DNA of 64,000 nucleotides from Candidatus Woesearchaeota archaeon (GCA_965205335.1 OZ242164.1:160001-224000); one strand, 5' to 3'; counted from the first letter of the stretch, positions 6,468 to 23,848 are shown. Numbers and translations are program-made. Notes: generated by a model from the letters alone, not told the origin.

Positions 6468-6790
6468 TTAACTTAGTTTTGAATTTTCAAAGTCTTCTTT
6501 TTTAATTAAAACATATTTTTCCACATTCTGTAATAATTCATTTGACCTTGAAAAATTAGTATTTCTGTCTCTATTAAAATAAGTGTAAAGAATTGTTTTA
6601 ACTCCCTTTTTGTAAGCATTGTTTATCGCAGGAATAAAATCAGTATCACATGCAATTAGAATTACATTTTTTATATTTGGATATTTAGCAGAAGTCTCAA
6701 TTAAATCAATAGTTAGCAAAGTATCAACTCCTTTTTGAGAAAACTTGTACCTATTACCCTCTTTTACTCTTTGACACCTTCCTTCTCTTA
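6468..6790 (-). pseudogene. 5'-truncated NYN (LabA/PIN-fold) ribonuclease
   Basis: Frame extends upstream of the listed ORF as IREGRCQR...SQKGVDTLLTIDL...LIACDTDFIPAI..AYKKGVK; N-terminus replaced by the repeat starting at 6782. Confidence 0.75.
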
Positions 6791-7895
6791 TGTTATCATC
6801 AAGTCTTTATTTTTCATAAATTTAACTAAAAATTTTGATTTCTTTATTTATAAAAGTTTAATCCATTCTATAAGTTATTAGAAAATTAAGTATTTAAGAA
6901 TAATTCCTTTGCATCTAAATATTAAAAGTAGAAATTCAAATTCCTATTGTCTTACTATCATTGAGTAGAGAAAACTATATAAATAATAATCTCTTATTAT
7001 TTTAAGTATTAAAGAGAGTTTTCACAATAAAACTCTTAAATGTTAAAAGGCATGCATTTAGTTATTTAAGAATCATATAAACTTTATATGATGGTGCAAG
7101 TTTCTTTTTAATTAACAATGGAAACAACAATTAATTTAGAAGAGAGAATAGGAAACCATATATATAATGGAGATTTTATGGGAGGAATAGAAAGTCCTTC
7201 AAAGAGGAATTTTTTAAAGAAACTTGGGGTTGGTTTAGTTAGTTTAGTAGGTTATGCAACATTATGTAGTTCAGAGGCAAATGCGCAGGGCTTACCACCG
7301 GGGATAGCAAACTGCCGTGATAGAGCAATAAGAATATTATATAGAGATCAAGTTGGAGAAGACAGAGGAAGGAGCAGCTATGGAAGCATTAATAATAGGC
7401 TGAATGGTGTAATTGGTGGATTCTTTGACAGTGTATTAGTAGAGGATAAGTCAAAAAGGATTGAGCCGGCATTGTACTTGTTAAGAGAACAAATTAATCA
7501 CAAATACCGTAGTGGGCTTGGTATTACTGTTAGATTGCCGGAGGTTAGGGATGTGCCTCAGATGTTAAATTTTGATAGAGGAATTAAAAATTTTTATATT
7601 TCTTATATTTATCAGTGGGCAGGTCGTTATATCCCGCATGAAAAAAGCATAGGGAGTGAACAGACAAAAAGAGCGACTGAGAGTAATTTTGTCCATTCAA
7701 TAGCATACGCTGCATATTCTGATACTGAAACAGCAGAACAAAAAGCAAAAGAATATTTAGAGTCAGATATGGAAGGAAAAACAAGAGTAGTTATGGACAT
7801 AAAAAAACAATTTGAGGAAATGAGTAATGGAGACAAAGAATCAAGAGACCCAAGAGACCCGTACAACAGAAAACTCGCAGCATCCTGGAGTAGTT
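6782..7895 (+). repeat. Left arm of ~1.1-kb near-perfect inverted repeat (partner 22293-23405)
   Basis: Reverse complement of 22293-23405; one 1-bp indel seen near 6882; encoded proteins identical up to LAASWSS. Confidence 0.9.
6952..7117 (+). promoter_or_regulatory. 166-bp cassette leader, copy 1 of 6 (others 8381-8546, 9794-9959, 11429-11594 on +; 21633-21798, 23071-23236 on -)
   Basis: TTACTATCATTGAGTAGAGA...AGAGTTTTcacaatAAAACTCT...TATAAAcTTTATATG...TAATTAACA-ATG, nearly identical and the same length before all six genes; TATA-like TTTATA about 30-35 nt upstream of ATG. Confidence 0.85.
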
Positions 7896-8035
7896 TTCGG
7901 CTTGAAAGAAGTATTTTTTTTGAACAGAATGGAACAGATAGTGATAGAAATTTATCAATAAATAGACACATAGAAATCCCTCTGAGAGAAGCAGTAGGGT
8001 TCAGAATCAGAGGACCTCCTCACTATAAACTCTAA
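7118..8035 (+). CDS. Twin-arginine-signal cassette protein A1, unknown function
   Basis: SKRNFLK + hydrophobic stretch + ANA/Q cleavage-like site; paralog of 8547 and 22150. Confidence 0.8.
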   Translation: METTINLEERIGNHIYNGDFMGGIESPSKRNFLKKLGVGLVSLVGYATLCSSEANAQGLPPGIANCRDRAIRILYRDQVGEDRGRSSYGSINNRLNGVIGGFFDSVLVEDKSKRIEPALYLLREQINHKYRSGLGITVRLPEVRDVPQMLNFDRGIKNFYISYIYQWAGRYIPHEKSIGSEQTKRATESNFVHSIAYAAYSDTETAEQKAKEYLESDMEGKTRVVMDIKKQFEEMSNGDKESRDPRDPYNRKLAASWSSFRLERSIFFEQNGTDSDRNLSINRHIEIPLREAVGFRIRGPPHYKL

Positions 8036-8388
8036 TCTGCTTCTCCTTTCTCTTCTGTTCTCTGATGACCCTCATCATTTTGTTGTCTTCTGCAATTGTC
8101 TGATGATGTTAAGTAAAATTCTACTAAACCACTCTTACTAAAATTTAATATTTTTTCTGGCTGCTTTTGTCCTTCTACTTCTACTATTCTTTTAGATTCT
8201 AATGTGTATCTTAATGTTAATTTTGGTGGTTCTCTTGTTCCTGTAAAATGTTGTCCTACTTTTTCTGAGAAACTTCCACTTGTATTTAACTCCCTGAATC
8301 TTCCAATTAAGCCATCTGACAAATTTATTTCTTTTGAGTCAAAATTTTTTAATCCAAGAGATAAATCTTCTATACCACCATTACTATC
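8032..8388 (-). pseudogene. Partner 3'-end fragment alpha1 (tail NDEGHQRTEEKGEAD)
   Basis: Open frame from DSNGGIEDLSLGLKNFDSKEINLSDGLIGRF to stop, with no in-frame ATG; stop overlaps the A1 stop by 4 bp. Confidence 0.7.
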
Positions 8389-8546
8389 ATTGAGTAGAGA
8401 AAACTATATAAATAATAATCTCTTATTATTTTAAGTATTAAAGAGAGTTTTCACAATAAAACTCTTAAATGTTAAAAGGCATGCATTTAGTTATTTAAGA
8501 ATTATATAAACTTTATATGATGGTGCAAGTTTCTTTTTAATTAACA

Positions 8547-9440
8547 ATGGAAACAGCAATTAATTTAGAAGAGCGAATAGGAAACCATATAGATAATAGG
8601 AATATAATGGGAGAGATAGAAAATCCTTCAAGAAGGAATTTTTTAAAAGGACTTGGGATTGGTTTAGCGGGTTATGCAATATTTGGTGGTTTAGAGGCAA
8701 ATGCACAAGGCAGATATGATAACATGGAATTATTAAGACAACATTTACCTCCCGGGATATTAAACTGCCGTGACAGAGCAATTAGAATACTATACGCTCA
8801 GGAAGTCTCTGGCCTCTGGGATGACTTTGGTAGGCTTTATTATAGAATGAAAAGTGAATTTAATGGGTACTACGACAGTGTAATAGTAGAACCTTGGTCA
8901 AGAAAGATTGAACCTGCAATGTATTTACTAAGAGAGCAAATTAATTACAAACGTGGAGGAATTTTTGCAGATTGGCGAAAGGTTACAGATGTGCCACAGA
9001 TGTTAGCTTTTGATGAGGGGATAAGATATTTTTATATTGCTTATGTTTATGGTAATGGTAATGAACAGACAAAAAGAACTACTGAAGATAAATTTGTCCA
9101 TTCAATAGCATACGCTGCATATTCTGATACTGAAACAGCAGAACAAAAAGCAAAAGAATATTTAGAGTCAGATATGGAAGGAAAAACAAGAGTAGTTATG
9201 GACATAAAAAAACAATTTGAGGAAATGAGTAATGGAGACAAAGAATCAAGAGACCCAAGAGACCCGTACAACAGAAAATTAATGGCATCTTGGAGTAGTC
9301 TTATGCTTGAACAGAGTTATTTTTTTGAACAGAATAGAACAGATAGTGAGAGGAATCTTTCAATAAACAGACATATAGAGATTCCCCTTAGAGAAGCAGT
9401 AGGGTTCAGAATCAGAGGACCTCCTCATTATAGATATTAA
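8547..9440 (+). CDS. Twin-arginine-signal cassette protein A2
   Basis: Canonical SRRNFLK motif, ANA/Q site; shares the FVHSIAY...YNRKL block with A1 and A3. Confidence 0.8.
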   Translation: METAINLEERIGNHIDNRNIMGEIENPSRRNFLKGLGIGLAGYAIFGGLEANAQGRYDNMELLRQHLPPGILNCRDRAIRILYAQEVSGLWDDFGRLYYRMKSEFNGYYDSVIVEPWSRKIEPAMYLLREQINYKRGGIFADWRKVTDVPQMLAFDEGIRYFYIAYVYGNGNEQTKRTTEDKFVHSIAYAAYSDTETAEQKAKEYLESDMEGKTRVVMDIKKQFEEMSNGDKESRDPRDPYNRKLMASWSSLMLEQSYFFEQNRTDSERNLSINRHIEIPLREAVGFRIRGPPHYRY

Positions 9441-9447
9441 TTTAATT

Positions 9448-9801
9448 TTATCCTGCACCAACTCCTTCACTTGTCAGATTATTCCCACTGCTTTGTTGTC
9501 TTCTGCAATTGTCTGATGATGTTAAGTAAAATTCTACTGAACCACTCTTACTAAAATTTAATATTTTTTCTGGCTGCTTTTGTCCTTCTACTTCTACTAT
9601 TCTTTTAGATTCTAATGTGTATCTTAATGTTAATTTTGGTGGTTCTCTTGTTCCTGTAAAATGTTGTCCTACTTTTTCTGAGAAACTTCCACTTGTATTT
9701 AACTCCCTGAATCTTCCAATTAAGCCATCTGACAAATTTATTTCTTTTGAGTCAAAATTTTTTAATCCAAGAGATAAATCTTCTATACTACCATTACTAT
9801 C
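9448..9801 (-). pseudogene. Partner 3'-end fragment alpha2 (tail SSGNNLTSEGVGAG)
   Basis: Near-identical to alpha1 up to DNCRRQQ, then a different tail. Confidence 0.7.
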
Positions 9802-9959
9802 ATTGAGTAGAGAAAATTATATAAATAACAATCTCTTATTATTTTAAGTATTAAAGAGAGTTTTCACAATAAAACTCTTAAATGTTAAAAGGCATGCATT
9901 TAGTTATTTAAGAATTATATAAACTTTATATGATGGTGCAAGTTTCTTTTTAATTAACA

Positions 9960-10883
9960 ATGGAAACAACAATTAAATTAGAAAAGCGAATAGGAAACCA
10001 TATATATAATGGAAATTTTATGGAAGAGATAGAAAGTCCTTCAAAGAGGAGATTTTTAAAAGGATTATTAGGTGCGGGGGTTGTTGCAGTTACTCCAAAA
10101 TTAGCATTTGCACAAAGAAAGAAAAGAATCTCAGATGAAGCAAGAAATAGAATATGGGCAAACTACCCAGAAATGCAGGGTGCAATTGATTTGATAAACG
10201 ATGATGTTTTTGAGGGATTAATTGATTATGCAATGTATCCAAGTCAGGGATATTCTGACCCAAGAGGTATTCCCACATCAATAAGAAAAATACCAAGAGA
10301 AGACATTGGCACACCACACTATTGGCTTCTTTTAAAAATTTACGAAGATAATTACAATTATTATGCTGATGAAGGTGGAAATCCAGGAATGGGCGTTCCG
10401 CCTCCCCCCTCCCCACCATCAGGTGTGTGGTATTTTGCAAGAGGTTTGAGAGACAATAGTCCTGACAATGAAAGTGATTTACTTAAAGCATTGTACATAG
10501 GAGCAACAGGCAGTCCACAAGGAGCAGAACCAATAATCAATGGCACATTCATGAATGTACCCAGAGTTAGAGAAAAAGTAAGAGAATGGCGAGAGAGAAA
10601 TCAACTATCTTCAGATTTGGATGAAGAAGAACACTTATTGTTAGCTTATAACTTAAATGTATTAAGGGCAGTTAGATTTAGGGACGAGGAACTTGTTGAG
10701 TTAAGTCTTTTGGCATTAGAGGATTTTTATGATGGAGTTCGTGCTCCTTCAAAGAGTGACATTTATGGAGCGGAGATTATTGCAGATTTAACGAGAAGAG
10801 ACAAATTGCCAAGATATTCCATAATTGAGAGGACTGGTTCAAGTTTTGTTGTAACATCTCCCTTGCCAGTGCTGAGATTTTAA
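9960..10883 (+). CDS. Twin-arginine-signal cassette protein B1
   Basis: SKRRFLK + h-region + AFA/Q; paralog of 11595 and 20691. Confidence 0.8.
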   Translation: METTIKLEKRIGNHIYNGNFMEEIESPSKRRFLKGLLGAGVVAVTPKLAFAQRKKRISDEARNRIWANYPEMQGAIDLINDDVFEGLIDYAMYPSQGYSDPRGIPTSIRKIPREDIGTPHYWLLLKIYEDNYNYYADEGGNPGMGVPPPPSPPSGVWYFARGLRDNSPDNESDLLKALYIGATGSPQGAEPIINGTFMNVPRVREKVREWRERNQLSSDLDEEEHLLLAYNLNVLRAVRFRDEELVELSLLALEDFYDGVRAPSKSDIYGAEIIADLTRRDKLPRYSIIERTGSSFVVTSPLPVLRF

Positions 10884-11380
10884 CCTTTTTCTTTCACGCT
10901 TCTTGTATCTTGTACTTCACCACCACTTGTGATTCTGTTATTTGTTCTGGGATCACATTGTCTTATTCTGAATGTTCTTGATATTGTTACCGGTTCTTTA
11001 TTTTTTTTAGAATTTTTATTCTTTTGATGATATGTTAAGTACAGTGTAACTTCTTCTTCAGGTGTTCCCGTAGGAAGTTTATATCCTGACAAGTTTAATT
11101 CTCCTCTATAAAGATTATCTTTATATTCTAGTTCTCTTTCGGAATCTACTTCTACTTCCTTATCATCTCTTTTTACAGTTTTTTTATATTTGAATTTTTT
11201 AAACTTGTTCTTATCACTGTCTCTTCTCTGCTGTGCAAATGAAACTCTATAATCAAAATGTTTTCCATCATTATTTGTAATAGCAACAATTTCTTGTGTA
11301 TTATAATCAAAACCCTTCAAATTACTTACCGCTGAGATTATTACTGGTATGATTAAATCCTGTTCCTCCTCTTTATTTCT
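10880..11380 (-). pseudogene. Partner 3'-end fragment beta1 (tail DPRTNNRITSGGEVQDTRSVKEKG)
   Basis: Frame open from RNKEEEQDL to stop; 5' end fused out of frame to an alpha stub; stop overlaps the B1 stop. Confidence 0.7.
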
Positions 11381-11594
11381 TTTGAGTCAAAATTTTTTAA
11401 TCCAAGAGATAAATCTTCTATACTACTATTACTATCATTGAGTAGAGATAACTATATAAATAACAATCTCTTATTATTTTAAGTATTAAAGAGAGTTTTC
11501 ACAATAAAACTCTTAAATGTTAAAAGGCACGCATTTAGTTATTTAAGAATTATATAAACTTTATATGATGGTGCAAGTTTCTTTTTAATTAACA

Positions 11595-12533
11595 ATGGAA
11601 ACAGCAATTAATTTAGAAGAGCGAATAGGAAACCATATAGATAATGGAAATATTATGGAAGAGATAGAAAGTCCTTCAAAGAGGAGATTTTTAAAAGGAT
11701 TATTAGGTGCAGGAGTTATTGCAGTTACTCCAAAATTAGCATTTGCACAAAGAAGGAAGAAAATCTCAGATGAGGCAAGAGATAGGATTTGGAAAAACTA
11801 TCCAGAAATGCGAGATGTAATTAATATGATAAATGCAGGTAAAGGCAGAAATCACCTTGATTATGCACTGTTCCCCAATCAAGAAATATCTAATCTAAGA
11901 AATCTTCCTATAATGACCGACAAGATTCCAAAAGACGACATGGGGACACCGCAATACTGGCTTCTTGTAAGAATTGACAATCCAGGAACACGAAGTTATA
12001 ATCTGCTATTTGATGGCAGGCATGATCACCTTGGTGTTCCTCCACTTTCACCTCATACGGGAGTGTGGTATTTTGCAAGAAGTTTGAAAAGCAGAAGTTC
12101 TACTAACGAAAGTGATTTGCTTAAAGCCTTGTACATAGGAGCAACAGGCAGTCCACAAGGAGCAGAACCAATAATAAATGGTACATTTATGAATGTATCT
12201 GGAGTTAGAGAAAAAGTTAGGGAATGGAGAGAAGAATATGACTTTGCCCCACATTCAGATGAAGGAAATCATCTGTTAGCATATAATCTAAACATTCTCA
12301 GGGAAGCCATTTTCCCCAACACAGAACATTTTAAAGGCAGAGAACTTGTAGAATTAAGTCTTTTGGCACTGGAGGATTTTTATGATGAGGTTTATTCACC
12401 TGAAAAGAGTAATATCTATGGAGGAAGAATAGTTGGGGATTTAACGAAGAAGGATAAGTTGCCTGGATATTTTATGATTGATGAAGCAGGAGCAGAATCT
12501 CCTTTACCTGTGTTAAGATTTCATAGTAGGTAG
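11595..12533 (+). CDS. Twin-arginine-signal cassette protein B2
   Basis: Same leader and N-region; NESDLLKALYIGATGSPQGAEPIINGTFMN block shared with B1 and B3. Confidence 0.8.
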   Translation: METAINLEERIGNHIDNGNIMEEIESPSKRRFLKGLLGAGVIAVTPKLAFAQRRKKISDEARDRIWKNYPEMRDVINMINAGKGRNHLDYALFPNQEISNLRNLPIMTDKIPKDDMGTPQYWLLVRIDNPGTRSYNLLFDGRHDHLGVPPLSPHTGVWYFARSLKSRSSTNESDLLKALYIGATGSPQGAEPIINGTFMNVSGVREKVREWREEYDFAPHSDEGNHLLAYNLNILREAIFPNTEHFKGRELVELSLLALEDFYDEVYSPEKSNIYGGRIVGDLTKKDKLPGYFMIDEAGAESPLPVLRFHSR

Positions 12534-12589
12534 CGAGAAAGAGAAATTAAAATTCCATTTATCGGTCTCTGATTGATTATTTCATCTTA

Positions 12590-13276
12590 TTAACTAACCC
12601 CTCCATCTTCTGGAGTTTTTGTTTTTTCTTTCCGTTGAACTCCACCACTTGTGATTCTGTCAATTGTTCTGGGATCACATTGTCTTATTCTGAATGTTCT
12701 TGATATAGTTACTGGTTCTTTATTTTTTTTAGGGTCTTTACTCTTTTGATGATATGTTATATACAGAGTAACTTCTTCTTCAGGAGTTCCTGTTGGAAGT
12801 TTATATCCTGACAAGTTTAATTCTCCTCTATAAAGATTATCTTTATATTCTAGTTCTACTTTTACTTTCTTTTCTCTGCCATTACTATCCTTAATTACAT
12901 TGCCATTATCATCCTTAAGTACAAGATCGAATTTTTTTTCTAACTTGTTCTTCTCATTATCTCTTCTCTGCTGTGCAAATGAAACTCTGTAATCAAAATT
13001 TTTGTTATCATCTCTTTCAATATTCATGATACTCTCATCATCATACTTGAACTTCTCCCAATTACTTACCGCAGAGATTATTACTGGTACAATTAAATCC
13101 TGTTCCTCCTCTTTGTTTCTGACACACAAGCTTTGCTTTTCAAATGGTCTTACTATATCAAATATGAAATTCATATCATCATCTTCTTCATTTTTAACGT
13201 TTGAAGCAACAGTAAATCTGAGTTCAAGTAAATCATTGACATCCACATTTCTTGACACATCTATGTCTTCACCCAT
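12590..13276 (-). CDS. Partner beta2, longest copy (possibly itself a fragment)
   Basis: 228-aa ORF; frame stays open to about 13388; shares FDYRVSFAQQRRD, LNLSGYKLPTGTPEEEVTL and EPVTISRTFRIRQC with beta1 and beta3. Confidence 0.6.
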   Translation of the reverse strand: MGEDIDVSRNVDVNDLLELRFTVASNVKNEEDDDMNFIFDIVRPFEKQSLCVRNKEEEQDLIVPVIISAVSNWEKFKYDDESIMNIERDDNKNFDYRVSFAQQRRDNEKNKLEKKFDLVLKDDNGNVIKDSNGREKKVKVELEYKDNLYRGELNLSGYKLPTGTPEEEVTLYITYHQKSKDPKKNKEPVTISRTFRIRQCDPRTIDRITSGGVQRKEKTKTPEDGGVS

Positions 13277-13444
13277 TATACTATATTTTCTGAAATTATC
13301 TCTTGTTATACTTCCTGCATTGCTTGGTAAAAGTCTTAATAATAATCTACATTTTAATTCAGTAGTTTTATTTGTATTAAGACTTTTTCATAACATATAT
13401 AATTTAATAATAAACCCCCCTTTAAGTTGACAACTCATATAAAC

Positions 13445-14474
13445 GGCTCTGTCCATAAATTAATTTTTTTAAAATAAAAGAGATGAAAATACAATTTGAT
13501 ACTAAAACATTATCATTTTTCTTTTGAAAATTATCCAATTTTCATAGAAGAAAATTACATAAGAAAGTTTTTTTCTAATGTTATACCAAAGAATATTCCA
13601 TGCCATCTCCCTTTTTTTCATAAAATGTATCCTACTTCTGATATTTAGGCCTTGAACTCTCTTGAGTGATGAAAACACACTCTCGACATTGTTCCTTTTA
13701 TTGTATATTTCTTTGTTTTTGAAGTATTTTTGTTTGATTTTCCAATGCTTAAAAGCATTATGCTTGGTTTTTGCATAGTCTTTTGGCGGGAAAATCAAAT
13801 CTATATCTTTATCATTTAGAAAATCTAAATGATCAAAGGAAAAATATCCTTTGTCTGCCACAATAACACTCTTCTTTATTTTGAGTCTTTTGAAAAGTTT
13901 GTTTGCAACTTTTGAATCATGCTGATTCTTAACCAAGAAAGAATAATCAATTATTTGTTTAGAGCCTTGTACGTCACAAATTATATCTAATTTGTGCCAA
14001 GGTGATTTGGGTTCAAATCCAATCCGATGTTTGTAATAAGTAGTTTTATGGTCTGCATCAATTCCCGAACCATCAATTGCTACAAGGTCTGGATTAGGAT
14101 TTTCTAAAGAAAGTCTAATTAGGTTGCGGATAAAACTAACTGAGAAGAACTTTAACCACTTATGAAGTGTTGATTTCTTTGGAAGGCGTTTTAACTGCAA
14201 CCAATGCTTCCATGCGGTTAATGTGCCGTCTAGATTGCTTACAAACCTTCTAAAGGATTTTCCTGATTGGATGTATAAGACTATTATAGAAACTCTTTGA
14301 TAATTGTTAAAGAGTTTGCAACCCCTCACAAAATTGTGAGGCCTTAACCTTAAACTATGACAAAGTTTAAGTACTTCCTTATGTAAACTATTAGTAAAGT
14401 TGGTGTGTTCTAACATAAAAAACTATCAACTTTACACTTTATTAATTCTTCGATTTGAATTTATGGACAGTGCC
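13445..14474 (-). mobile_element. IS5-family insertion sequence (ISH1/IS903-like), 1030 bp
   Basis: 17-bp TIRs GGCTCTGTCCATAAATT / GGCACTGTCCATAAATT around a DDE transposase. Confidence 0.9.
13502..14416 (-). CDS. IS5-family DDE transposase
   Basis: VAIDGSG, HDS, VADKGY, YNKRNNVESVFSSLKR. Confidence 0.9.
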   Translation of the reverse strand: MLEHTNFTNSLHKEVLKLCHSLRLRPHNFVRGCKLFNNYQRVSIIVLYIQSGKSFRRFVSNLDGTLTAWKHWLQLKRLPKKSTLHKWLKFFSVSFIRNLIRLSLENPNPDLVAIDGSGIDADHKTTYYKHRIGFEPKSPWHKLDIICDVQGSKQIIDYSFLVKNQHDSKVANKLFKRLKIKKSVIVADKGYFSFDHLDFLNDKDIDLIFPPKDYAKTKHNAFKHWKIKQKYFKNKEIYNKRNNVESVFSSLKRVQGLNIRSRIHFMKKREMAWNILWYNIRKKLSYVIFFYENWIIFKRKMIMF

Positions 14475-14522
14475 TACACTTGAATAAATTTATAAATAAA
14501 GAGAAATAAAAATACTTTAACT

Positions 14523-16730
14523 ATGAAGATAAATAAGAGGATACGATTATGTATTATTTTAGTGTCGTTGTTTTTCTTATTAGGAATTACTGGATGTGTG
14601 CAAGAACCAGTAATAGTAGAAGAGAATGGCAATACAACATCCAATATAATCGATACAGATTTTGAATATGAATTGTTTAATCAATCTCTGGAAATAAAAA
14701 ATTTCACATCAGAAACCCAACTTAGCGAATATTTAAAGAAGAATTCACAATCAGGTAGTTTCTATTATTCAGATGATTTTGCAACTTTTGGTACTTTTGA
14801 AGGAGATGTAGTCTTTGAAGCTTCTGCTCAAGCAGATTCTTCTGTCAGTGCAAAATCAATAGAGAGTGTTAGAGCAGATGATTACTCCCAGACAAATATA
14901 CAGGTTGAAGGTGTAGATGAGGCTGATTTTGTTAAAAATGATGGAAAATATATTTATATGATATTGCAGGGAAAATTAGTAATTGTAGATGCTTATCCTC
15001 CAAAAGAAGCGAAAATCATATCAAAAACAGAAATTAAAGGAAATCCTCAAAATTTATATATTAATAAAGATAGAGTTATAGTATTTGCATCAGATTATAA
15101 AAAAGTGCAAAAAATCTCAAGATATGATTTCATTCCAAAAGAAACCTCAGAAAGGCATACAATTGCATACATCTATAATGTTTCAGACAGGAAAAATCCA
15201 AAACTCTTAAAGGAATATTCTGCAACAGGAAATTATTTAGAGTCTCGGATGATTGAAGATTATATTTATTTTATATCAAAAGAATCTATCTATTACTATG
15301 ATGATGTAATCACTTTCCCTGAGGTGAGATTAGATGGGAACTTAATTAGCACCCCAGAAGTTTTTTATTTTGATATTCCAGAAAGCAGATATATATTTCA
15401 CACTTTTACAACTTTTAATATATATGAAGATAAAAAATCTAATGCAAAGACATTTATGCTTGGAGCATCAAACAATGTATATGTATCCCAAGATAATATT
15501 TATATAACTCATAAGAAAACATATCCAAGTTTGTTCTATAAGCAATTAGAAATTGATAAATTCTTCAAGGCAGTTGTCCCATTACTCCCTACCCAAGTTG
15601 CAGATAATATCTCAGAAATTAGAAGGGGGTTAGAGGATAACTCAATAGAATCTTATAATGCAATATGGAATGAAATATCTGTTGTTCTTGAAGATATGTA
15701 TAATTCTATGGAGAAGGATGAAAAATATGAATTAATTGATAAAATTGAAGAATCTTTAATTGAGTATGAAACCGAGATTGAAGATAAGATTTCATCATCT
15801 GTTGTTCATAAAATCTCAATTAATGAAGACGAGATTGAATATTTAACAAACGGAGAGGTCAAGGGAACACTTTTAAATCAGTTTTCAATGGATGAAAAAG
15901 ATGGAAATTTAAGGGTTGCAACAACAACTAACTCTTTTTCACGTCAAAGAGGCAGAGTTATGTATAATAATGTATATGTGTTAGATGAAGATTTAGAAAT
16001 TATCGGAAAAATTGAAAAGATTGCACCTGATGAGAGAATTTATTCAACAAGATTTATGGGAGATAAACTTTATATGGTAACATTTAAACAAATAGACCCG
16101 TTATTTACAATTGATTTGTCTAACCCAGAAGAACCTAAAATAATAGGACAGTTAAAAATTCCCGGATTTTCAAATTATCTTCACCCGTATGATGAGAATC
16201 ATTTAATAGGGATTGGACAGGATACATACGTGAATGATCGTGGGGGGGTTAGAACAAAAGGAGTTAAGATTTCATTATTTGATGTTTCAGATTTTGAGAA
16301 TCCAAGAGAGGTTGATAATGTTATTATCGGAGATGAGGGTTCTTATTCGGAGGTTTTAAATGATCATAAAGCACTTTTGTTTAGCCGTGAAAAGAATTTA
16401 CTTGTACTGCCAATTAGAGAAGTATCTGATAACTATAAAACAGATAGAGGCGGGTATTTTAGAAACAGAGTTTGGAATGGGGCTTATGTGTTTACAGTTA
16501 CGCCTGACGGGTTTAGCGAGCGGGGAAAGATAAAACATTCAGATAAAGAATATGATACATATTATTGGAGTTCACCAAGTTCAGTAAGAAGAGCATTATA
16601 CTTAGATGATAATTTATACACGATTTCAGATGAGTATATTAAAATTAATGATTTAAACACTATTGATGAGATAGGAGATATAAAACTGCCTTATAATGAT
16701 AGATGGTATTATGATTATTGGTATAAATAA
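14523..16730 (+). CDS. Secreted beta-propeller domain lipoprotein
   Basis: Lipobox-like LLGITGC; YSQTNIQVEGVDEADFVKNDG, LLNQFSMDE, ERIYSTRF, GQLKIPGFSNYLHP motifs. Confidence 0.9.
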   Translation: MKINKRIRLCIILVSLFFLLGITGCVQEPVIVEENGNTTSNIIDTDFEYELFNQSLEIKNFTSETQLSEYLKKNSQSGSFYYSDDFATFGTFEGDVVFEASAQADSSVSAKSIESVRADDYSQTNIQVEGVDEADFVKNDGKYIYMILQGKLVIVDAYPPKEAKIISKTEIKGNPQNLYINKDRVIVFASDYKKVQKISRYDFIPKETSERHTIAYIYNVSDRKNPKLLKEYSATGNYLESRMIEDYIYFISKESIYYYDDVITFPEVRLDGNLISTPEVFYFDIPESRYIFHTFTTFNIYEDKKSNAKTFMLGASNNVYVSQDNIYITHKKTYPSLFYKQLEIDKFFKAVVPLLPTQVADNISEIRRGLEDNSIESYNAIWNEISVVLEDMYNSMEKDEKYELIDKIEESLIEYETEIEDKISSSVVHKISINEDEIEYLTNGEVKGTLLNQFSMDEKDGNLRVATTTNSFSRQRGRVMYNNVYVLDEDLEIIGKIEKIAPDERIYSTRFMGDKLYMVTFKQIDPLFTIDLSNPEEPKIIGQLKIPGFSNYLHPYDENHLIGIGQDTYVNDRGGVRTKGVKISLFDVSDFENPREVDNVIIGDEGSYSEVLNDHKALLFSREKNLLVLPIREVSDNYKTDRGGYFRNRVWNGAYVFTVTPDGFSERGKIKHSDKEYDTYYWSSPSSVRRALYLDDNLYTISDEYIKINDLNTIDEIGDIKLPYNDRWYYDYWYK

Positions 16731-16814
16731 ATGTAGATTATAAACTCAGATATGCTTAAAAAATTATACTTTATTTGTATATGTTTATAACTTGAATTTA
16801 TAATTTGCAGTTAC

Positions 16815-16942
16815 GGCTCTGTCCATAAATTCAAAAGAACTTAAAATATTATATAAATAAAGTAATTTTTGACAAATAATCTTTTTCTTTGATTGAATAT
16901 AGTTAGCATAGATTTTGGAGAAAACAATTTATGGACAGAGCC
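16815..16942. mobile_element. MITE (128 bp) with TIRs matching the IS at 13445
   Basis: GGCTCTGTCCATAAATT...AATTTATGGACAGAGCC; interior homologous to the copies at 29848 and 43884. Confidence 0.9.
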
Positions 16943-17284
16943 ATATAAACGATAATTTTATAAATATATTATATAATTAATTGTTTAAACAATTTGCTTA
17001 ATAGCCATATATGGAGAATATGACTATTAGTTTGCTTGGGTTAGGTAACGAATATTAAAATATTCGTATTTGGCTTATTACGCTTATTCTAATATTTGAA
17101 ATAAAACACACGTTGCCTATCCTACTTACTTTAAACGTTTAGATTTTAAATAGTTATCGCTTAATTTTCCAAAGATCTTTAGTGTTCTTTTACTCCTTTT
17201 CAGAAAAGAGAAAAATTTATGAATGAACACCCTTTTTAATTTTTATGGAAGGAATTAATAAATATTTAAAAAACGCTTCTAAGA

Positions 17285-17773
17285 GTGGAAGGGGGGAGGG
17301 AGGACAATATGGAAGAAAATATAAAATTTTATTCTGAAATTTACGTTCAAATAATTTATTGCATTAATAAAAAAGGTCTTATAATTAAAGAGAATAAATT
17401 TAATTTTAATAAATTTAAAAAATTAGTCTTAGAATTAAAATCAAAAAATGTGTTTGATTCTATTTTAAATAAGTATAATAAATTTGATGAAAATGAATTA
17501 AAACTAATTCTTATTGGAATTATGAAGATTATTATAAATAGATTTAAAGGAATTGTAGAAGATACTCAAGAAACTTCGCAAAATTATAGTGAAGAATATA
17601 AAGCTGCACTTGCTGATATAAAACATAATTCTTTAAGAGAAATTCAAAAGTTTGAAGAATTAATTTCTAAAAATCAATTTGAAAATATAATATCAGAGAT
17701 AAAGAAAAGCAATATAAGATATGATCCCAAATTTTTTCATTTATTCAGTGAAAGAAATAATAAGAGAACTTAA
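17285..17773 (+). CDS. Hypothetical protein
   Basis: ORF only; ATG near 17309 is the likelier start. Confidence 0.45.
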   Translation: MEGGREDNMEENIKFYSEIYVQIIYCINKKGLIIKENKFNFNKFKKLVLELKSKNVFDSILNKYNKFDENELKLILIGIMKIIINRFKGIVEDTQETSQNYSEEYKAALADIKHNSLREIQKFEELISKNQFENIISEIKKSNIRYDPKFFHLFSERNNKRT

Positions 17774-17821
17774 GAAACTATTGAATCAAACTAAACAAAT
17801 TTTAGAAGAAAACATAATCTA

Positions 17822-17911
17822 CTATTGTAGATATAATACGATATAAATAATAATTATAATTATGCCAATAATAATAAACATACTAATTTGGGATTTCTTT
17901 GCCTTACTCAT
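17822..17911 (-). pseudogene. Class III (pilin-like) signal peptide stub
   Basis: MSKAKKSQ/ISMFIIIGIIIIIIYIVLYLQ then stop. Confidence 0.4.
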
Positions 17912-18390
17912 ATATTCATTACCTAATATTAAATAACACATTTATAATATATGAGGTATGAAAATATTTATAAGTTTATTGAATATGAAAAAAAATTATT
18001 TTTAAATATCAGAATGTGCATATAATATTATGGAAAAAGAACGCAAATGGATGAGTGTTAGTTGGAGGTTTGATAAAAACGGAAATACAATTGGTAAAAA
18101 ACCAGTGTGTAGTGCCATGACATATGTCACCAGTCTAAAGATTAACAATTCTTGTTAACTTTCTTAAAAAACTTTGAGACAGCCTATCTCCAATAAAAAG
18201 AATAAGAGGGAAAGTATCTGATATTGAAGGGGAAATAGAGTTCAAATAGAGATTAAATCTTCAAGTTAAATATGATATTCATATTTTCTGTTACTTCTTC
18301 GTTTAACTCGTGTAAACCTTCTAACTTCTCTGTTATTTCTTCTTCCGACTTCTTGACCTTAGTTTTCTTCATATTTGTTGATTGACAAAG

Positions 18391-18615
18391 TTATTTATAT
18401 ATATTTTTTCTTAAGCCCAAATATTTGACATAAAGTTCCTTTTCCTCAAAATTAATACTAATTAATGTCCTATGATTTCCAATTTTAAGTTTATAATATT
18501 TATCTCCTTCGTAATGTTCTAAATAATGAAAAGGGTTACTTTCAAGTTTTTTTAACTTAACTTTTGTATCTATTATTAAATAGATTTTAAAAAAGATTTT
18601 CTTGATGAATTTCAA
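18391..18615 (-). pseudogene. Degenerate RelE/ParE-family toxin
   Basis: KLKKLESNP...YKLKIGNHR...LYVKYLGLRKNIYK; N-terminus irregular. Confidence 0.6.
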
Positions 18616-18626
18616 AAGTAAAAACC

Positions 18627-20039
18627 AAATGGTAAAATTTACAGAGATTTACCGTTATTAACAATTGAATTAAATTTATCGCTCCTAATGAAAATACTTC
18701 TATTTCCTGCTGATTTCTCAATCAAAAACCCTAAATTTACCAGTTTTTGCAAATCACTTCTAGCAGTTTGTTTTGTAATTACAAATCTCTGTGAGATTTC
18801 TAAAACTGAAAAAATTCTATTCTTATCACTTTCATAAAAACCTAAGATTTGAGCTTGTCTCTCTGTCAAATCCCCATATTTTAAGAACTTCATTGAACTT
18901 CTCTTCTCTTTTAACTTTCTTTCAATATATGCTCTTAAATCATTAAAAGCTAATTCAATTTTATCAACTTTATAATTAATAAAATATGTTAAGTCATTAT
19001 CATCAATTTCTGAATATACGTAAGCTTTAGAATATTGAGAATGACTCTTTATAATAATTCTTGATATACTAATATATTCAAATAGCCAGTAATTATTTGA
19101 GATAAGGTAAAGAAAAAAAATACATCTTGCACATCTTCCGTTTCCATCATAAAATGGATGTATATATCCAAGTAAGAAATGTAATATATTTGCTTTTATA
19201 ATTGGATGTATAAAGAATTTCTGTTCATTATTATAAAAATCACAAAAATCATCTATTAATCTTCCTAATTCTTTCTTACTTGGAGGAATATGATAAACTT
19301 CTCCTGTAATTCTGTCTGCAACTTTGATTTCATCTGTGTTTCTGAATTTTCCTTCGTAATCTACCTTCTCTAACGTTTTGGATGTAATTATCTGATGGAG
19401 TTCCAATAAAATCTCTTTTGTTAGTTTTTCCCCTTTTAAGTCTAAAATTCTTTTCATTGCAAGAAAATTGTTTAAAATCATCTTTTGACTTTTATCTTTA
19501 GGTTTTTTTCTGTTTAGAATCATATCCTTTGCAACTTTTATTGTTGTGCTTGCACCCTCTAACCTTGATGAATTAATTGATTCCTCAATAATTGAATTTA
19601 TTAAAAATCTATCTATTTCATCACTGGGGATTATTCCATTAACTGTTAAACTACCCCCTAAATTTAAGTCAAAATTGTGCAACTTCTCTAAAGTACTACT
19701 TGTTAAGTTAAAACAAAATCTGTACTTTCCAATCTTAATTGATTTTAAATTCTTCATTCTTTCAAGTTTCATCATATGCCAAATATCCTCTCTTGATATA
19801 CCTCTAGGAATATTCTTGTAGTATAATTTCTCCCAATAAATATATTTCTCATTGTATTCTTTGACTAATTCTCTAAATTTTGAATTTGATATGTATGCTT
19901 TAAAAATTCTAGATAAATACTCAGAATCAGCCTTCTTAGGAGGTATTTTTGGAAATCTCATTCTAATATTAGAATTACTTACTTATTTATAAAATTTGTG
20001 TAAATGGTAAAATTTACAGAAATTTACCATTATTGACAA
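18627..20039. repeat. 38-bp quasi-palindromic direct repeats at 18627-18664 and 20002-20039 flanking the Fic gene
   Basis: AAATGGTAAAATTTACAGA(G/A)ATTTACC(G/A)TTATT(A/G)ACAA, 3 mismatches. Confidence 0.8.
18639..19961 (-). CDS. Fic-domain protein with C-terminal wHTH
   Basis: HPFYDGNGRCAR Fic motif; SSRLEG; ITKQTARSDLQKLV HTH. Confidence 0.92.
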   Translation of the reverse strand: MRFPKIPPKKADSEYLSRIFKAYISNSKFRELVKEYNEKYIYWEKLYYKNIPRGISREDIWHMMKLERMKNLKSIKIGKYRFCFNLTSSTLEKLHNFDLNLGGSLTVNGIIPSDEIDRFLINSIIEESINSSRLEGASTTIKVAKDMILNRKKPKDKSQKMILNNFLAMKRILDLKGEKLTKEILLELHQIITSKTLEKVDYEGKFRNTDEIKVADRITGEVYHIPPSKKELGRLIDDFCDFYNNEQKFFIHPIIKANILHFLLGYIHPFYDGNGRCARCIFFLYLISNNYWLFEYISISRIIIKSHSQYSKAYVYSEIDDNDLTYFINYKVDKIELAFNDLRAYIERKLKEKRSSMKFLKYGDLTERQAQILGFYESDKNRIFSVLEISQRFVITKQTARSDLQKLVNLGFLIEKSAGNRSIFIRSDKFNSIVNNGKSL

Positions 20040-20054
20040 CAGCATTTACATAAA

Positions 20055-20683
20055 GTGAAGAAGAGGTTAAATGAAAGAGGAGATGATGTTTACTGGACAT
20101 GGAATAGTGATGACATTCATTTAGCATTTGATTTAGTTAGACCGTTTGAAAAGCAAAGTGTTTGTGTCAGAAATAAAGAAGAGGAACAAGATCTAAATGT
20201 ATCAGTAATAATCTCTGCGGTAAGTAATTTGAAGGATTTTAAGTATATAATGTAAATATTAAAAACAATGATGTAGATGATGATATAGAAAAAGTTCCTA
20301 ATTATTTTGATTATAGAGTTTCATTTGCACAGCAGAGAAGAGATAGTGATAAGAACAAGTTTAAAAAATTCAAATATAAAAAAACTGTAAAAAGAGGTGA
20401 TAAGGAAGTAGAAGTAGATTCCGAAAGAGAACTAAATTATACAGATAATCTTTATAGTGGAATTTTAAACTTGTCAGGATATAAACTTCCAACAGGAACT
20501 CCTGAAGAGGAAGTTACACTGCATATAACTTATCATAAAAAAGATAAAGAACCAGTAACAATATCAAGAACATTCAGAATAAGACAATGTAATCCTGGAA
20601 TAATTGACAGAACCTCTACAGATGACGGTGATGATCCTAGTATTAAGGGAAGCTCTGGGGGAGATATTCCTAGTCAAGAATAA
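20055..20683 (+). pseudogene. Partner beta3, frameshifted near 20245 (tail NPGIIDRTSTDDGDDPSIKGSSGGDIPSQE)
   Basis: FDLVRPFEKQSVCVRNKEEEQDL in one frame continues as FDYRVSFAQQRRD...RIRQC in another. Confidence 0.75.
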
Positions 20684-20690
20684 TTATGAG

Positions 20691-21632
20691 TTAAAATCTT
20701 AATCTTGGTAAAGGATCTCTTACAACATAAATTGAACCATCTCTTTCAATTATAGAATATTCTGGCAACTTTCCTTTTTCTGTTAGGTCTTCAATTACCC
20801 ATGCCCGATAAAGACTTCTCCTTTCAGGAGAATTAGTTCTATCATAAAAATCCGCCAATGTTAAAAGACTTAGTTCTACAAGTTCTTTATCTCTAAAATC
20901 CACGTTCCTGAGAATATTCACATTATATGCTAATAGGTGATTTCCTTCGTCTGAAAATGGAGCAAAGTCATATTTTTCTTTCCATTCTCTTACTTTTTCT
21001 CTAACTCCAGATGCATTCATAAATGTACCATTTATTATTGGTTCTGCTCCTTGTGGACTGCCTGTTGCTCCTACATATAATGATTTAAGTAAATCACTTT
21101 CATTGTCAGGACTATTGTCTCTCAAACCTCTTGCAAAATACCACACACCTGAAGGGGGAGAGGGGGGAGGCGGAACGTCTAACCCTGGATCTCCGTCCTC
21201 ATCGGCAAAGAAATTATAATCATCATCTGCATGAATTTTTAAAAGAAGCCAATAGTGTGGTGTGTCCATATCTTCGCTTGATATTTTATCTATTGATGTA
21301 GGAATACCTCTTGGACTATAATATCCCTGATCTGGATACATTGCATAATCAATTAATACATCATCAACGGATTCATCATTCACATAATTATCATTTATCA
21401 AGTCAATTGCTCCTTGCATTTCTGGGTAGTTTGCCCAAATCCTATTTCTTGCTTCATCTGAGATTTTCTTCCTTCTTTGTGCAAATGCTAATTTTGGAGT
21501 AACTGCAATAACTCCTGCACCTAATAATCCTTTTAAAAATCTCCTCTTTGAAGGACTTTCTATCTCTTCCATAAAATTTCCATTATATATATGGTTTCCT
21601 ATTCGCTTTTCTAATTTAATTGCTGTTTCCAT
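20691..21632 (-). CDS. Twin-arginine-signal cassette protein B3
   Basis: B1-like N-terminal two thirds; B2-like YDFAP.SDEGNHLLAYN block. Confidence 0.8.
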   Translation of the reverse strand: METAIKLEKRIGNHIYNGNFMEEIESPSKRRFLKGLLGAGVIAVTPKLAFAQRRKKISDEARNRIWANYPEMQGAIDLINDNYVNDESVDDVLIDYAMYPDQGYYSPRGIPTSIDKISSEDMDTPHYWLLLKIHADDDYNFFADEDGDPGLDVPPPPSPPSGVWYFARGLRDNSPDNESDLLKSLYVGATGSPQGAEPIINGTFMNASGVREKVREWKEKYDFAPFSDEGNHLLAYNVNILRNVDFRDKELVELSLLTLADFYDRTNSPERRSLYRAWVIEDLTEKGKLPEYSIIERDGSIYVVRDPLPRLRF

Positions 21633-21790
21633 TGTTAATTAAAAAGAAACTTGCACCATCATATAAAGTTTATATAATTCTTAAATAACTAAATGCATGC
21701 CTTTTAACATTTAAGAGTTTTATTGTGAAAACTCTCTTTAATACTTAAAATAATAAGAGATTGTTATTTATATAATTTTCTCTACTCAAT

Positions 21791-22147
21791 GATAGTAATG
21801 GTGGTATAGAAGATTTATCTCTTGGATTAAAAAATTTTGACTCAAAAGAAATAAATTTGTCAGATGGCTTAATTGGAAGATTCAGGGAGTTAAATACAAG
21901 TGGAAGTTTCTCAGAAAAAGTAGGACAACATTTTACAGGAACAAGAGAACCACCAAAATTAACATTAAGATACACATTAGAATCTAAAAGAATAGTAGAA
22001 GTAGAAGGACAAAAGCAGCCAGAAAAAATATTAAATTTTAGTAAGAGTGGTTTAGTAGAATTTTACTTAACATCATCAGACAATTGCAGAAGACAACAAC
22101 AAGGAGATGTAGGGGGAGTAGGTGATGCCGATGAAGGGGAAATTTAA
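21791..22147 (+). pseudogene. Partner 3'-end fragment alpha3 (tail QGDVGGVGDADEGEI)
   Basis: Identical to alpha1 up to DNCRRQQ, third distinct tail. Confidence 0.7.
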
Positions 22148-22149
22148 TG

Positions 22150-23070
22150 TTAATATTTATAATTATAGTGGGGGGGTCCTCTAATCTTAAATCCTACATC
22201 TTCTCTTAATGGTGCTTCTATATTTCTATTTATAAGTAAGCCTATTTCCATTTGATTACCCCTACTAGGGCGATAATTTACTACAAGCCAATAACTACTC
22301 CAGGATGCTGCGAGTTTTCTGTTGTACGGGTCTCTTGGGTCTCTTGATTCTTTGTCTCCATTACTCATTTCCTCAAATTGTTTTTTTATGTCCATAACTA
22401 CTCTTGTTTTTCCTTCCATATCTGACTCTAAATATTCTTTTGCTTTTTGTTCTGCTGTTTCAGTATCAGAATATGCAGCGTATGCTATTGAATGGACAAA
22501 ATTACTCTCAGTCGCTCTTTTTGTCTGTTCACTCCCTATGCTTTTTTCATGCGGGATATAACGACCTGCCCACTGATAAATATAAGAAATATAAAAATTT
22601 TTAATTCCTCTATCAAAATTTAACATCTGAGGCACATCCCTAACCTCCGGCAATCTAACAGTAATACCAAGCCCACTACGGTATTTGTGATTAATTTGTT
22701 CTCTTAACAAGTACAATGCCGGCTCAATCCTTTTTGACTTATCCTCTACTAATACACTGTCAAAGAATCCACCAATTACACCATTCAGCCTATTATTAAT
22801 GCTTCCATAGCTGCTCCTTCCTCTGTCTTCTCCAACTTGATCTCTATATAATATTCTTATTGCTCTATCACGGCAGTTTGCTATCCCCGGTGGTAAGCCC
22901 TGCGCATTTGCCTCTGAACTACATAATGTTGCATAACCTACTAAACTAACTAAACCAACCCCAAGTTTCTTTAAAAAATTCCTCTTTGAAGGACTTTCTA
23001 TTCCTCCCATAAAATCTCCATTATATATATGGTTTCCTATTCTCTCTTCTAAATTAATTGTTGTTTCCAT
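22150..23070 (-). CDS. Twin-arginine-signal cassette protein A3
   Basis: Identical to A1 up to LAASWSS, distinct last ~47 aa. Confidence 0.8.
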   Translation of the reverse strand: METTINLEERIGNHIYNGDFMGGIESPSKRNFLKKLGVGLVSLVGYATLCSSEANAQGLPPGIANCRDRAIRILYRDQVGEDRGRSSYGSINNRLNGVIGGFFDSVLVEDKSKRIEPALYLLREQINHKYRSGLGITVRLPEVRDVPQMLNFDRGIKNFYISYIYQWAGRYIPHEKSIGSEQTKRATESNFVHSIAYAAYSDTETAEQKAKEYLESDMEGKTRVVMDIKKQFEEMSNGDKESRDPRDPYNRKLAASWSSYWLVVNYRPSRGNQMEIGLLINRNIEAPLREDVGFKIRGPPHYNYKY

Positions 23071-23405
23071 TGTTAATTAAAAAGAAACTTGCACCATCAT
23101 ATAAAGTTTATATGATTCTTAAATAACTAAATGCATGCCTTTTAACATTTAAGAGTTTTATTGTGAAAACTCTCTTTAATACTTAAAATAATAAGAGATT
23201 ATTATTTATATAGTTTTCTCTACTCAATGATAGTAAGACAATAGGAATTTGAATTTCTACTTTTAATATTTAGATGCAAAGGAATTATTCTTAAATACTT
23301 AATTTCTAATAACTTATAGAATGGATTAAACTTTTATAAATAAAGAAATCAAAATTTTTAGTTAAATTTATGAAAAATAAAGACTTGATGATAACATAAG
23401 AGAAG
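22293..23405 (-). repeat. Right arm of ~1.1-kb inverted repeat
   Basis: Reverse complement of 6782-7895. Confidence 0.9.
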
Positions 23406-23544
23406 TTGTTACCATATCAAAAGAAGAGTATGAGAGTCTTAAGGCAAAAGAGAAATTTGCACAATATGGTTTAGCCCAACTCAAACTTACTTATAGCAGA
23501 ATACGAAAAAAACGGACTTCAAAAAGTCCTATAGTCATCTACTA
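23370..23544 (+). pseudogene. Frameshifted small antitoxin-like gene
   Basis: ATG at 23370 is out of frame with DDNIREVVTISKEEYESLKAKEK, a pattern common in small archaeal antitoxins. Confidence 0.35.
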
Positions 23545-23848
23545 AAAAATGTTTAAATATCTCTTTGTTTTCTTTAACAAATTTAATTATTTCTTGCCAT
23601 CATAAGCCACTAAAAGTACTTTTTGCGGTTCTATTTTCCAAATATAATCAGTAATAAAGTCTCTTGCTGTCAATAACAACTTTATAATCAACTGAAATAA
23701 TTTTCCGTATATAATTACAATATATTGTACCTTTTTACGTAAATTGCCAAAATAGGGTTCTGTTAAATTTCAGAGACCTGTCAATTTATTTCTTTTAGGT
23801 GATTGAGTAGAGTAAGTGAAAAAACTTTCTGAAAATTTAATAATAAAT

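Follow-up and report, generated by a model that had tools for sequence, protein, structure and literature searches.

What are six short gene fragments doing in an archaeal genome when each runs tail-to-tail into a complete gene and each ends in a different tail? The question is raised by a stretch of 64,000 nucleotides (nt) from a Candidatus Woesearchaeota archaeon (GCA_965205335.1, OZ242164.1), bases 160,001-224,000 of the genome, which we call the window; positions are counted from its first base unless marked as genome positions. The source genome is a single contig of 1.2 Mb with about 30% G+C, is 95% complete, and carries an archaeal small-subunit ribosomal RNA gene that scores 1,320 bits on the archaeal model. 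The array in question consists of six genes for proteins of about 300 amino acids (aa), three of type A and three of type B, here called partners, each convergent with a short fragment that is termed alpha opposite type A and beta opposite type B. We propose that alpha and beta are promoter-less 3' fragments of the gene for a secreted giant protein, not small genes in their own right, and that they stand in orphan cassettes whose variable ends are exchanged by gene conversion. As a whole, this account is the best explanation that we can offer, and we give it a probability of roughly 0.7. The partners and fragments lie as follows:

7118-8035, plus strand: partner A1, 305 aa, with the leader METTINLEERIG...SKRNFLKK followed by a hydrophobic stretch; matches no known family.
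8032-8403, minus strand: alpha1, a 123-codon open frame with a TTG at 8322 (open reading frame 8032-8322); orphan 3' fragment of an A-type giant gene; tail NDEGHQRTEEKGEAD.
8547-9440, plus strand: partner A2, 297 aa, 67% identical to A1.
9448-9735, minus strand: alpha2, orphan fragment; tail SSGNNLTSEGVGAG.
9960-10883, plus strand: partner B1, 307 aa.
10880-11320, minus strand: beta1 (open reading frame; homology reaches 11392), orphan 3' fragment of the B-type giant gene with one in-frame TGA; tail DPRTNNRITSGGEVQDTRSVKEKG.
11595-12533, plus strand: partner B2, 312 aa, its last ~124 codons within a tract common to the full-length locus.
12590-13387, minus strand: beta2, a 265-codon open frame (from its ATG, 12590-13276); orphan 3' fragment of the giant gene, broken off beside an insertion sequence.
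20055-20683, plus strand: beta3 (open reading frame 20471-20683), degenerate orphan fragment split over two reading frames; tail NPGIIDRTSTDDGDDPSIKGSSGGDIPSQE.
20691-21632, minus strand: partner B3, 313 aa.
21857-22147, plus strand: alpha3, orphan fragment; tail QGDVGGVGDADEGEI.
22150-23070, minus strand: partner A3, 306 aa, its first 262 codons identical to those of A1 and the rest different.

The original prediction, made from the window alone, had described six tails that follow a conserved cysteine and a family-specific ending, stops that abut or overlap those of the neighbouring gene in five of six pairs, and fragments that mostly lack a start, and this description holds throughout. The alpha copies are identical or nearly so through ...DNCRRQQ and the beta copies through RIRQC, their tails diverging afterwards. 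At the DNA level the alpha boundary is sharp, the ~30 nt that end at the QQ codons being invariant and the following 45-55 nt unalignable, and the beta boundary is likewise abrupt. Five of the six pairs of stops lie within 7 nt, with a 4-nt overlap in A1/alpha1 and B1/beta1, a gap of 2 nt in A3/alpha3 and gaps of 7 nt in both A2/alpha2 and B3/beta3, the remaining pair, B2/beta2, being 56 nt apart. None of the six fragments has the start of the full-length gene. Instead, alpha1-3, beta1 and beta3 start at a TTG within longer open frames and beta2 at an internal ATG, and homology to longer proteins extends upstream of these apparent start codons; the frame of beta2 is open and homologous upstream of its ATG. 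We considered alpha as a free-standing small gene and rejected this, since its homology to a longer protein continues upstream of the TTG. As a separate observation, an open frame of 76 codons lies opposite each alpha copy (8204-8434 and 9617-9847, plus strand; 21745-21975, minus strand), probably a by-product of the purine-rich alpha coding strand.

A gene that ends like beta, with a partner of its own, lies elsewhere in the genome:

Genome 755939-761455, minus strand: full-length giant gene, 1,838 aa, 595 kb from the array; the sole full-length copy in the genome.
Genome 754974-755882, convergent with the full-length giant gene: fourth B-type partner gene.

Beta2 used as a query is 78% identical to the last 228 residues of this giant protein (genome 755942-756598), and the beta2 tail equals that of the full-length gene but for one residue. 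The 1,838-aa protein has an N-terminal signal-like hydrophobic stretch, no further strongly hydrophobic segment and 29 cysteines; Pfam, NCBIfam, PADLOC, PHROGs and PDB sequences returned no family for it beyond a sub-threshold immunoglobulin (Ig)-like match. With this locus included, all seven cassettes of the genome have a convergent partner.

For alpha the evidence comes from other genomes, as the present one holds only the three alpha copies and no full-length alpha gene. Full-length alpha-like ends occur in G009, G017 and G018, which belong to the same genus, and the giant protein of G009, ending in ...KFYLTANENC plus 12 residues, is clearly alpha-like. Among 5.8 billion proteins, alpha has a single relative that is longer, P0037. 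This piece of 304 aa, encoded on a contig of 2.2 kb, ends in ...DNCRRQQ plus a fourth acidic tail; alpha1 is homologous to its residues 193-293, and all three alpha copies begin at about its residue 193. P0037 also weakly matches the B-type C-terminal region (E 0.003), and alpha and beta are therefore distantly related forms of the same domain. A further A-type piece, corresponding to residues 52-171 of P0037, is found at genome 751797-752159 (minus strand), downstream of the full-length gene by 3.8 kb and in the same orientation; the B-type full-length gene is separated from this piece by three small genes and an rve-type integrase gene. We infer the displacement of an older A-type 3' end, which rearrangement subsequently split. 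The rve integrase gene (L023:1827-2690, plus strand) adjoins the partner gene of the full-length locus. Sequence continuing from the edge of the rve element is also found at genome 636.5 kb.

That the array and the full-length locus have exchanged sequence is indicated by a comparison with cassette B2. Over 656 nt (genome 755508-756163; about 12121-12780 in the window, accurate to one 60-column alignment window) the two differ at three positions, an identity of 99.5%. The tract holds the last ~124 codons of the partner, which is its last third, the 56-nt spacer, and the last ~74 codons of the giant gene including the tail. Its flanks are far more diverged, with ~210 differences in the 490 nt upstream (~57% identity) and ~100 in the 290 nt downstream, a 24-nt gap included (~65%), and near-identity between such flanks implies that an exchange happened. 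Each end of the tract lies inside the conserved arms, in a window with 86-96% identity among all four B copies.

A similar mosaic is seen within the type A units. A1 and A3 are 98-100% identical over 6782-7904 in every 50-column window and 100% identical over 8081-8380, with a patch of another kind between these arms:

7905-8080: variable patch of unit A1 (~175 nt), comprising the last 43 codons of the partner and the alpha tail; 38-66% identical to A3.

Between B1 and B3, blocks of 100% identity alternate with diverged ones. The same arrangement recurs in another species of the genus, G004, where the full-length gene can be compared with an orphan that follows it:

L046:3732-12858: locus of G004 with a tandem orphan cassette, a 630-aa fragment and a partner gene, directly downstream of the full-length gene.

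Here a patch of ~240 nt at 48-68% identity, made up of the last ~50 codons of the partner and the tail of the giant gene, lies between arms that are 95-100% identical. Point change after duplication cannot produce such a contrast between arms and patch; either conversion keeps the arms alike while the patch escapes it, or patches are brought in by recombination. In this regard, the original prediction had joined the variable ends of both genes into one linked block between two constant homology arms, suited to being swapped into a full-length expression locus. The linked block is borne out, and independently so in G004. For beta, this genome does contain a full-length locus, complete with a convergent B-type partner, and exchange with it is backed by the one near-identical B2 tract; for alpha it contains none, which leaves the alpha cassettes with no full-length target here. 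A diversity-generating retroelement was also considered as the source of the patches and rejected, there being no reverse transcriptase (PF00078) in the own genome and no second copy of a patch, and the patches differing at all four bases and by insertions and deletions, not at adenines.

The giant gene is widespread, being present in 42 of the 61 genomes searched (own included) and in all 19 same-genus genomes, and the protein measures ~1,670-1,880 aa across the genus. At the 16 same-genus loci that were read, nine have a convergent partner with a signal-like leader (G001, G002, G004, G007, G008, G009, G015, G016 and G018), three have a co-directional partner (G011, G017 and G012), and in four no partner was seen (G005, G013, G014 and G019). 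The nine genomes with a convergent partner hold 11 convergent cassettes, in seven of which the stops are at most 5 nt apart. By sequence, A-type partners were found in 4 of the 19 same-genus genomes, all at the giant gene, and in none of 41 others; a search of 60 relatives, most of which carry the giant gene, did not find the B-type partner in any. A second tandem arrangement besides that of G004 was seen:

L052:4357-16186: locus of G015, where a second, diverged set stands as tandem orphans immediately behind the main gene.

The main giant gene of G015 is itself in two frames, of 1,460 and 796 aa.

Metagenome proteins gave 34 matches to the B-type partner, 30 of them relatives and the other four the genome's own; locus scans of genome, metagenome and viral contigs for these relatives gave no confirmed locus. 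In one relative, P0008, the identity to B3 is 92-100% through the initial ~200 alignment columns and falls to 25-45% for the last third; in another, P0005, the leader is of a different kind, but most of the windows behind it are 75-97% identical to B1 (65% in the last). Modules are thus reassorted among the metagenome relatives of the B-type partner as well. In nine relatives (P0005, P0009-P0011, P0014, P0016, P0017, P0019 and P0025) a MKRLLPLGLALACA-like leader and a Cys-rich stretch replace the twin-arginine leader, the cores of these proteins being up to 97% identical to B1 or B3.

All seven partner genes of the genome are intact, and each is preceded by a common element:

6953-7117, 8382-8546, 9795-9959 and 11430-11594 (plus strand), 21633-21797 and 23071-23235 (minus strand), and, at the full-length locus, L023:2809-2973: the seven copies of a ~165-nt upstream region.

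This region, directly before all seven partner ATGs, is nearly invariant, more so than the coding sequence, and has no Rfam match; it contains TATA-like boxes that probably act as a promoter.

These observations lead us to the following model. Each fragment is an orphan 3' end of the secreted giant gene, still joined tail-to-tail to a complete partner gene with a twin-arginine-type leader, and a block made of the partner's C-terminal part, the spacer, and the tail and last codons of the giant gene sits between conserved stretches. Homologous recombination, in the form of gene conversion, would carry this block from cassette to cassette, and likewise between the cassettes and the one gene of full length; one conversion would alter the ends of both proteins together. 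The exchange may be used to vary a surface structure, and the orphans may have arisen as new 3' ends displaced old ones, as in the orphan arrays of polymorphic toxins.

Several observations weigh against this model. A single exchanged tract has been seen, and it may be one accident of concerted evolution; save for B2 and the full-length locus, no variable patch, that of A3 included, has a second copy in the genome. The 595 kb between the array and the full-length gene, together with the insertion-sequence flanks, also fit passive duplication. Three of the six cassettes have nothing to convert, there being no full-length alpha here, and the stop in beta1 and the frame change in beta3 are as in decaying remnants. 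In addition, the intact partners with their common invariant upstream region imply that no cassette is silent throughout, the giant-gene pieces being the sole parts that look so. Finally, the three public DNA runs come from one sample of one study and give short contigs at a depth of ~5, so they cannot show switching. Their contigs on the full-length locus are broken at repeats, and no piece joins the unique gene body to a tail; of 11 loose contig ends checked, 10 match other copies in the assembly exactly and one is found nowhere within 3 mismatches. A contig from run X3 (depth 3.8, L023:3746-4070) carries a B2-type tail with 3 differences in 325 nt and then 54 nt absent from the assembly, whose translation looks like one more beta variant and at most hints at an additional mosaic.

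What the tails themselves do is a matter apart. The tail is the giant protein's own C-terminal extension after a last beta-strand, often ending in a cysteine. When the last 440 residues of the giant protein were compared exhaustively with 1.84 billion representatives, 13 proteins were found, three of them full-length (1,775-1,821 aa). In 11 of the 13, a final Cys precedes an end of 8-45 residues that are hydrophilic and frequently acidic or rich in Gly/Ser/Pro; the exceptions are P0044, a short internal piece, and P0050, whose final Cys lies 22 residues earlier. Within the genus the final Cys is missing in G008, G016 and G018. The structure model of beta2, with a mean predicted local distance difference test score (pLDDT) of 78, consists of beta-sandwiches up to the strand VTISRTFRIRQ, whereas residues 243-265 have a pLDDT below 50, and the tail is accordingly modelled as disordered. 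The best PDB matches of this model are weak and generically Ig-like (pilins, adhesins, cadherins, an S-layer protein; E from 3e-3, template modelling (TM) score at most 0.39).

With a chance somewhat short of even, the tails have no specific function. They would then be unconstrained disordered ends, or read-through of the frame as far as the convergent gene, with a purine bias that mirrors the pyrimidine- or T-rich 3' region of the partner, possibly a terminator, and their being cassette-specific would reflect no more than a position at most 60 nt from where the partner varies at its end. This possibility concerns the tails only and is compatible with the orphan-cassette model. The low pLDDT fits it, and so do the low complexity of the tails and lengths that vary by insertions and deletions (G004a against G004b). 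The coding strand of the tails is purine-rich (A+G 0.59-0.80), and under the B2 tail the plus strand has runs of five and six T right after the partner stop. The tails of A1 and A2 are unalignable, yet the last ~113 nt of the two partner genes are 89% identical. Tails behind the last strand are found throughout the family. Within the genus, 11 cassettes from nine genomes combine a convergent partner with a tail of 8-45 aa; G017 and G012, whose partner is co-directional, and G005, G014 and G019, which have no partner, encode a protein that stops within 0-3 residues of its last strand. This link with gene orientation is unclean, since G013 has no partner and an 8-aa tail and G011 has a co-directional one and a 24-aa tail, and, as the genomes compared are few and kin to one another, it is only a lead. 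Each tail stays open in 0.11-0.36 of 20,000 composition-preserving shuffles, which is unremarkable, but tails are open in all seven copies here and in all 11 convergent cassettes of relatives. The product over the six tails is ~1e-4, to be read in the knowledge that the first ~12 residues are common to the beta tails, so that the six are not fully independent. Moreover, arms of 96-100% identity beside an unalignable tail exclude neutral point change, and the difference must have been kept or imported.

A lesser, still appreciable chance belongs to the view that the array is passive debris, produced by insertion-sequence-driven duplication and by the displacement of old 3' ends, with conversion incidental, no selection for switching, and the partners an ordinary multigene family. 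Two features of the array bear on it:

13502-14416, minus strand: insertion-sequence transposase gene (DDE_Tnp_1; PF01609, E 6e-21), at the truncated edge of beta2.
6782-7904 (left arm) and 22284-23405 (right arm): near-perfect inverted repeat of 1,022 nt + 103 nt, both 100% complementary, with a one-base offset.

In line with this view, the array is a near-perfect inverted duplication with a transposase gene at the broken end of beta2, the full-length locus has the rve integrase beside its partner gene, and beta1 and beta3 are interrupted. The A-type piece downstream of the B-type full-length gene is what displacement predicts, and the orphans of G004 and G015 likewise lie directly downstream of the main gene. 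Debris does not readily account for a sharply bounded patch between identical arms in two species, for seven intact partner genes behind an invariant upstream region, or for the modular exchange of the partner's last third in metagenome relatives too.

The original prediction had gone further and taken the tail and the C-terminal part of the partner for a co-evolving ligand-receptor pair, the cassettes existing to swap matched pairs. In full this reading is unlikely. It draws on the differing patch, which spans the last 43-50 codons of the partner plus the tail in two genomes, on the exchanged tract, which carries both ends together, and on the convergent pairing kept in 9 of the 16 same-genus loci, but joint inheritance is explained by physical linkage alone. 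Also in its favour, the last 200 residues of the giant protein and the partners are far more diverged across the genus than the core of the giant protein (normalised distances 0.86-0.96 for the last 200 residues, or 0.86-0.98 with the partners, against 0.44-0.79), the ends and partners being near saturation and the core not. A partial Mantel test of co-variation on 10 full-length loci, which left out G004b, G015a/b, G018, G008 and the window orphans, as these are without the core region, was not significant (partial r 0.16, permutation p 0.18). Unalignable tails beside nearly identical partner ends in A1 and A2, partners without a tail in G017 and G012, and a B-type partner absent from 60 relatives mostly with the giant gene, so that this family is not obligatory, likewise speak against matched pairs. 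A complex prediction for residues 44-302 of the B-type partner (28-row alignment) and the last 264 residues of the giant protein (15-row) scored 0.00 in two runs without controls, which is evidence neither way. Of the earlier interpretation, the cassettes, homology arms, linked variable block and full-length locus largely stand, with one exchange documented, and we consider its ligand-receptor half less probable than a disordered end that evolves fast and is carried along with the neighbouring gene.

It is most improbable that the giant protein delivers a C-terminal toxin to which the partner is the immunity protein, the orphans storing spare immunity genes, since, despite a similar layout (a large secreted protein whose body is conserved while its end and the neighbouring gene vary, and orphans made of a 3' fragment and a complete neighbour gene), the C-terminal module models as beta-sandwiches with the weak pilin-, adhesin- and cadherin-like matches given above, searches of Pfam, NCBIfam, PADLOC, PHROGs and PDB sequences revealed no toxin domain, only 14-30 residues follow the conserved boundary, and the partner is convergent, ~300 aa long and equipped with an export leader.

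The partners pose a puzzle of their own. Their leader consists of S/T-R-R-x-F-L-K, a hydrophobic stretch and an Ala-x-Ala-like site, with RR in 12 of 17 aligned leaders (counted by eye) and K-R in A1 and A3. In motif, hydrophobic stretch and cleavage-like site they resemble substrates of the twin-arginine translocation (Tat) pathway. They differ in an extra conserved motif, L-E-x-R-M-G-I-F, which precedes the RR motif within the first ~45 residues (e.g. window 7118-7250; loci L044, L046, L048, L054 and L058) and is common to partners whose mature parts are unrelated in sequence. They also score only 15.1 and 14.3 bits with Pfam TAT_signal (PF10518), below its curated cut-off of 22.7, two of the four partners scanned giving no match. 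Despite these twin-arginine-type leaders no Tat machinery was found, TatC (PF00902) being absent from all 20 genomes of the genus, own included, in a search whose control was positive in 11 of 14 known genomes, and TatA (PF02416) from the own genome, the only one scanned for it.

The B-type partner is modelled as all-helical (pLDDT 79.5, predicted TM score 0.80), and a PDB fold search with this model gave no match (best E 0.67). The mature domains of A- and B-type partners are aligned by hhalign with a probability of 0.8%; a stretch E-S-[DN]-hydrophobic...A-E common to both types was noticed by eye only. No PADLOC, PHROGs, NCBIfam or PDB-sequence family was found for the proteins of the locus, the ESM Atlas yielded signal-peptide look-alikes or no usable match, and all three protein families are without annotation.

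The left arm of the inverted repeat contains the upstream region of partner A1 and its codons 1-262. An invertible switch was rejected, since recombination at the inverted arms would exchange only the identical 5' parts of A1 and A3. The repeat flanks a segment of 14.4 kb with the remaining array, the insertion sequence, a gene for a beta-propeller protein and a Fic gene, the last in the central segment of the array:

18639-19961, minus strand: Fic/DOC gene with a C-terminal helix-turn-helix.

A direct repeat of 45 nt, 87% identical, at 18627-18671 and 20002-20046 brackets this gene. An Rfam scan of window 6000-24000 found nothing.

Two kinds of known systems invite comparison. Orphan toxin-immunity modules lie downstream of cdiA and rhs, and arrays of displaced effector-immunity genes occur at type VI secretion loci. 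As in the loci for contact-dependent growth inhibition (CDI) and Rhs, a giant secreted protein with a conserved body has a polymorphic 3' end and a polymorphic neighbour that travels along. The orphans again combine a complete neighbouring gene with a 3' fragment that has kept some homology (six in the window, one in G004, one diverged set in G015), and they can lie directly downstream of the main gene, as in G004 and G015, with a fragment of the older type downstream of the present 3' end in our genome. The differences are considerable, as the present system is archaeal and its neighbour gene is convergent and encodes an exported, helical protein of ~300 aa, whereas the immunity protein of the bacterial loci is small, cytoplasmic and encoded on the same strand. 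The variable end is modelled here as an Ig-like module with a short disordered tail, no toxin domain being detected, and the main array is 595 kb away from the full-length gene.

Gene conversion from silent partial cassettes underlies antigenic variation in Neisseria (pilE/pilS), Borrelia (vlsE/vls) and Mycoplasma genitalium (MgPa repeats). The locus described here resembles them in that a single gene of full length is accompanied by several partial copies elsewhere, apparently without promoters, in that conserved arms enclose its variable segments, and in that one cassette segment recurs nearly exactly in the full-length gene. It differs in that one tract only has been seen, with no evidence on rate or direction, in that the opposite strand of the cassettes carries complete genes that are probably expressed, in that the unit exchanged spans two convergent gene ends, and in that the host is an archaeon with a small genome, not a pathogen facing adaptive immunity. 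Cassette variation of surface proteins is known in bacterial and eukaryotic pathogens, and orphan modules at bacterial toxin loci; in the portions of the literature that we consulted, neither is described for giant surface proteins of archaea. Taken together, these features make the locus best filed as an archaeal variant of orphan-cassette, gene-conversion loci, built from three unannotated families.

A locus that shuffles the ends of two unannotated proteins marks the parts of them that are under pressure to differ, and its layout is unusual in that one short tract changes two convergent genes at once. The giant protein, found in every genome of the genus that was searched, offers a testable handle on this. 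As a speculation to which we attach little credence, the giant protein and its exported helical partner may form a surface recognition device whose contacting ends, the C-terminal part of the partner and the tail or last module of the giant protein, are encoded back-to-back, one short gene-conversion tract from the cassette store re-tuning both. On this speculation the locus would give archaea their own equivalent of antigenic or specificity variation, and leaders of twin-arginine type without Tat would imply an as yet unrecognised export route or the machinery of another cell.

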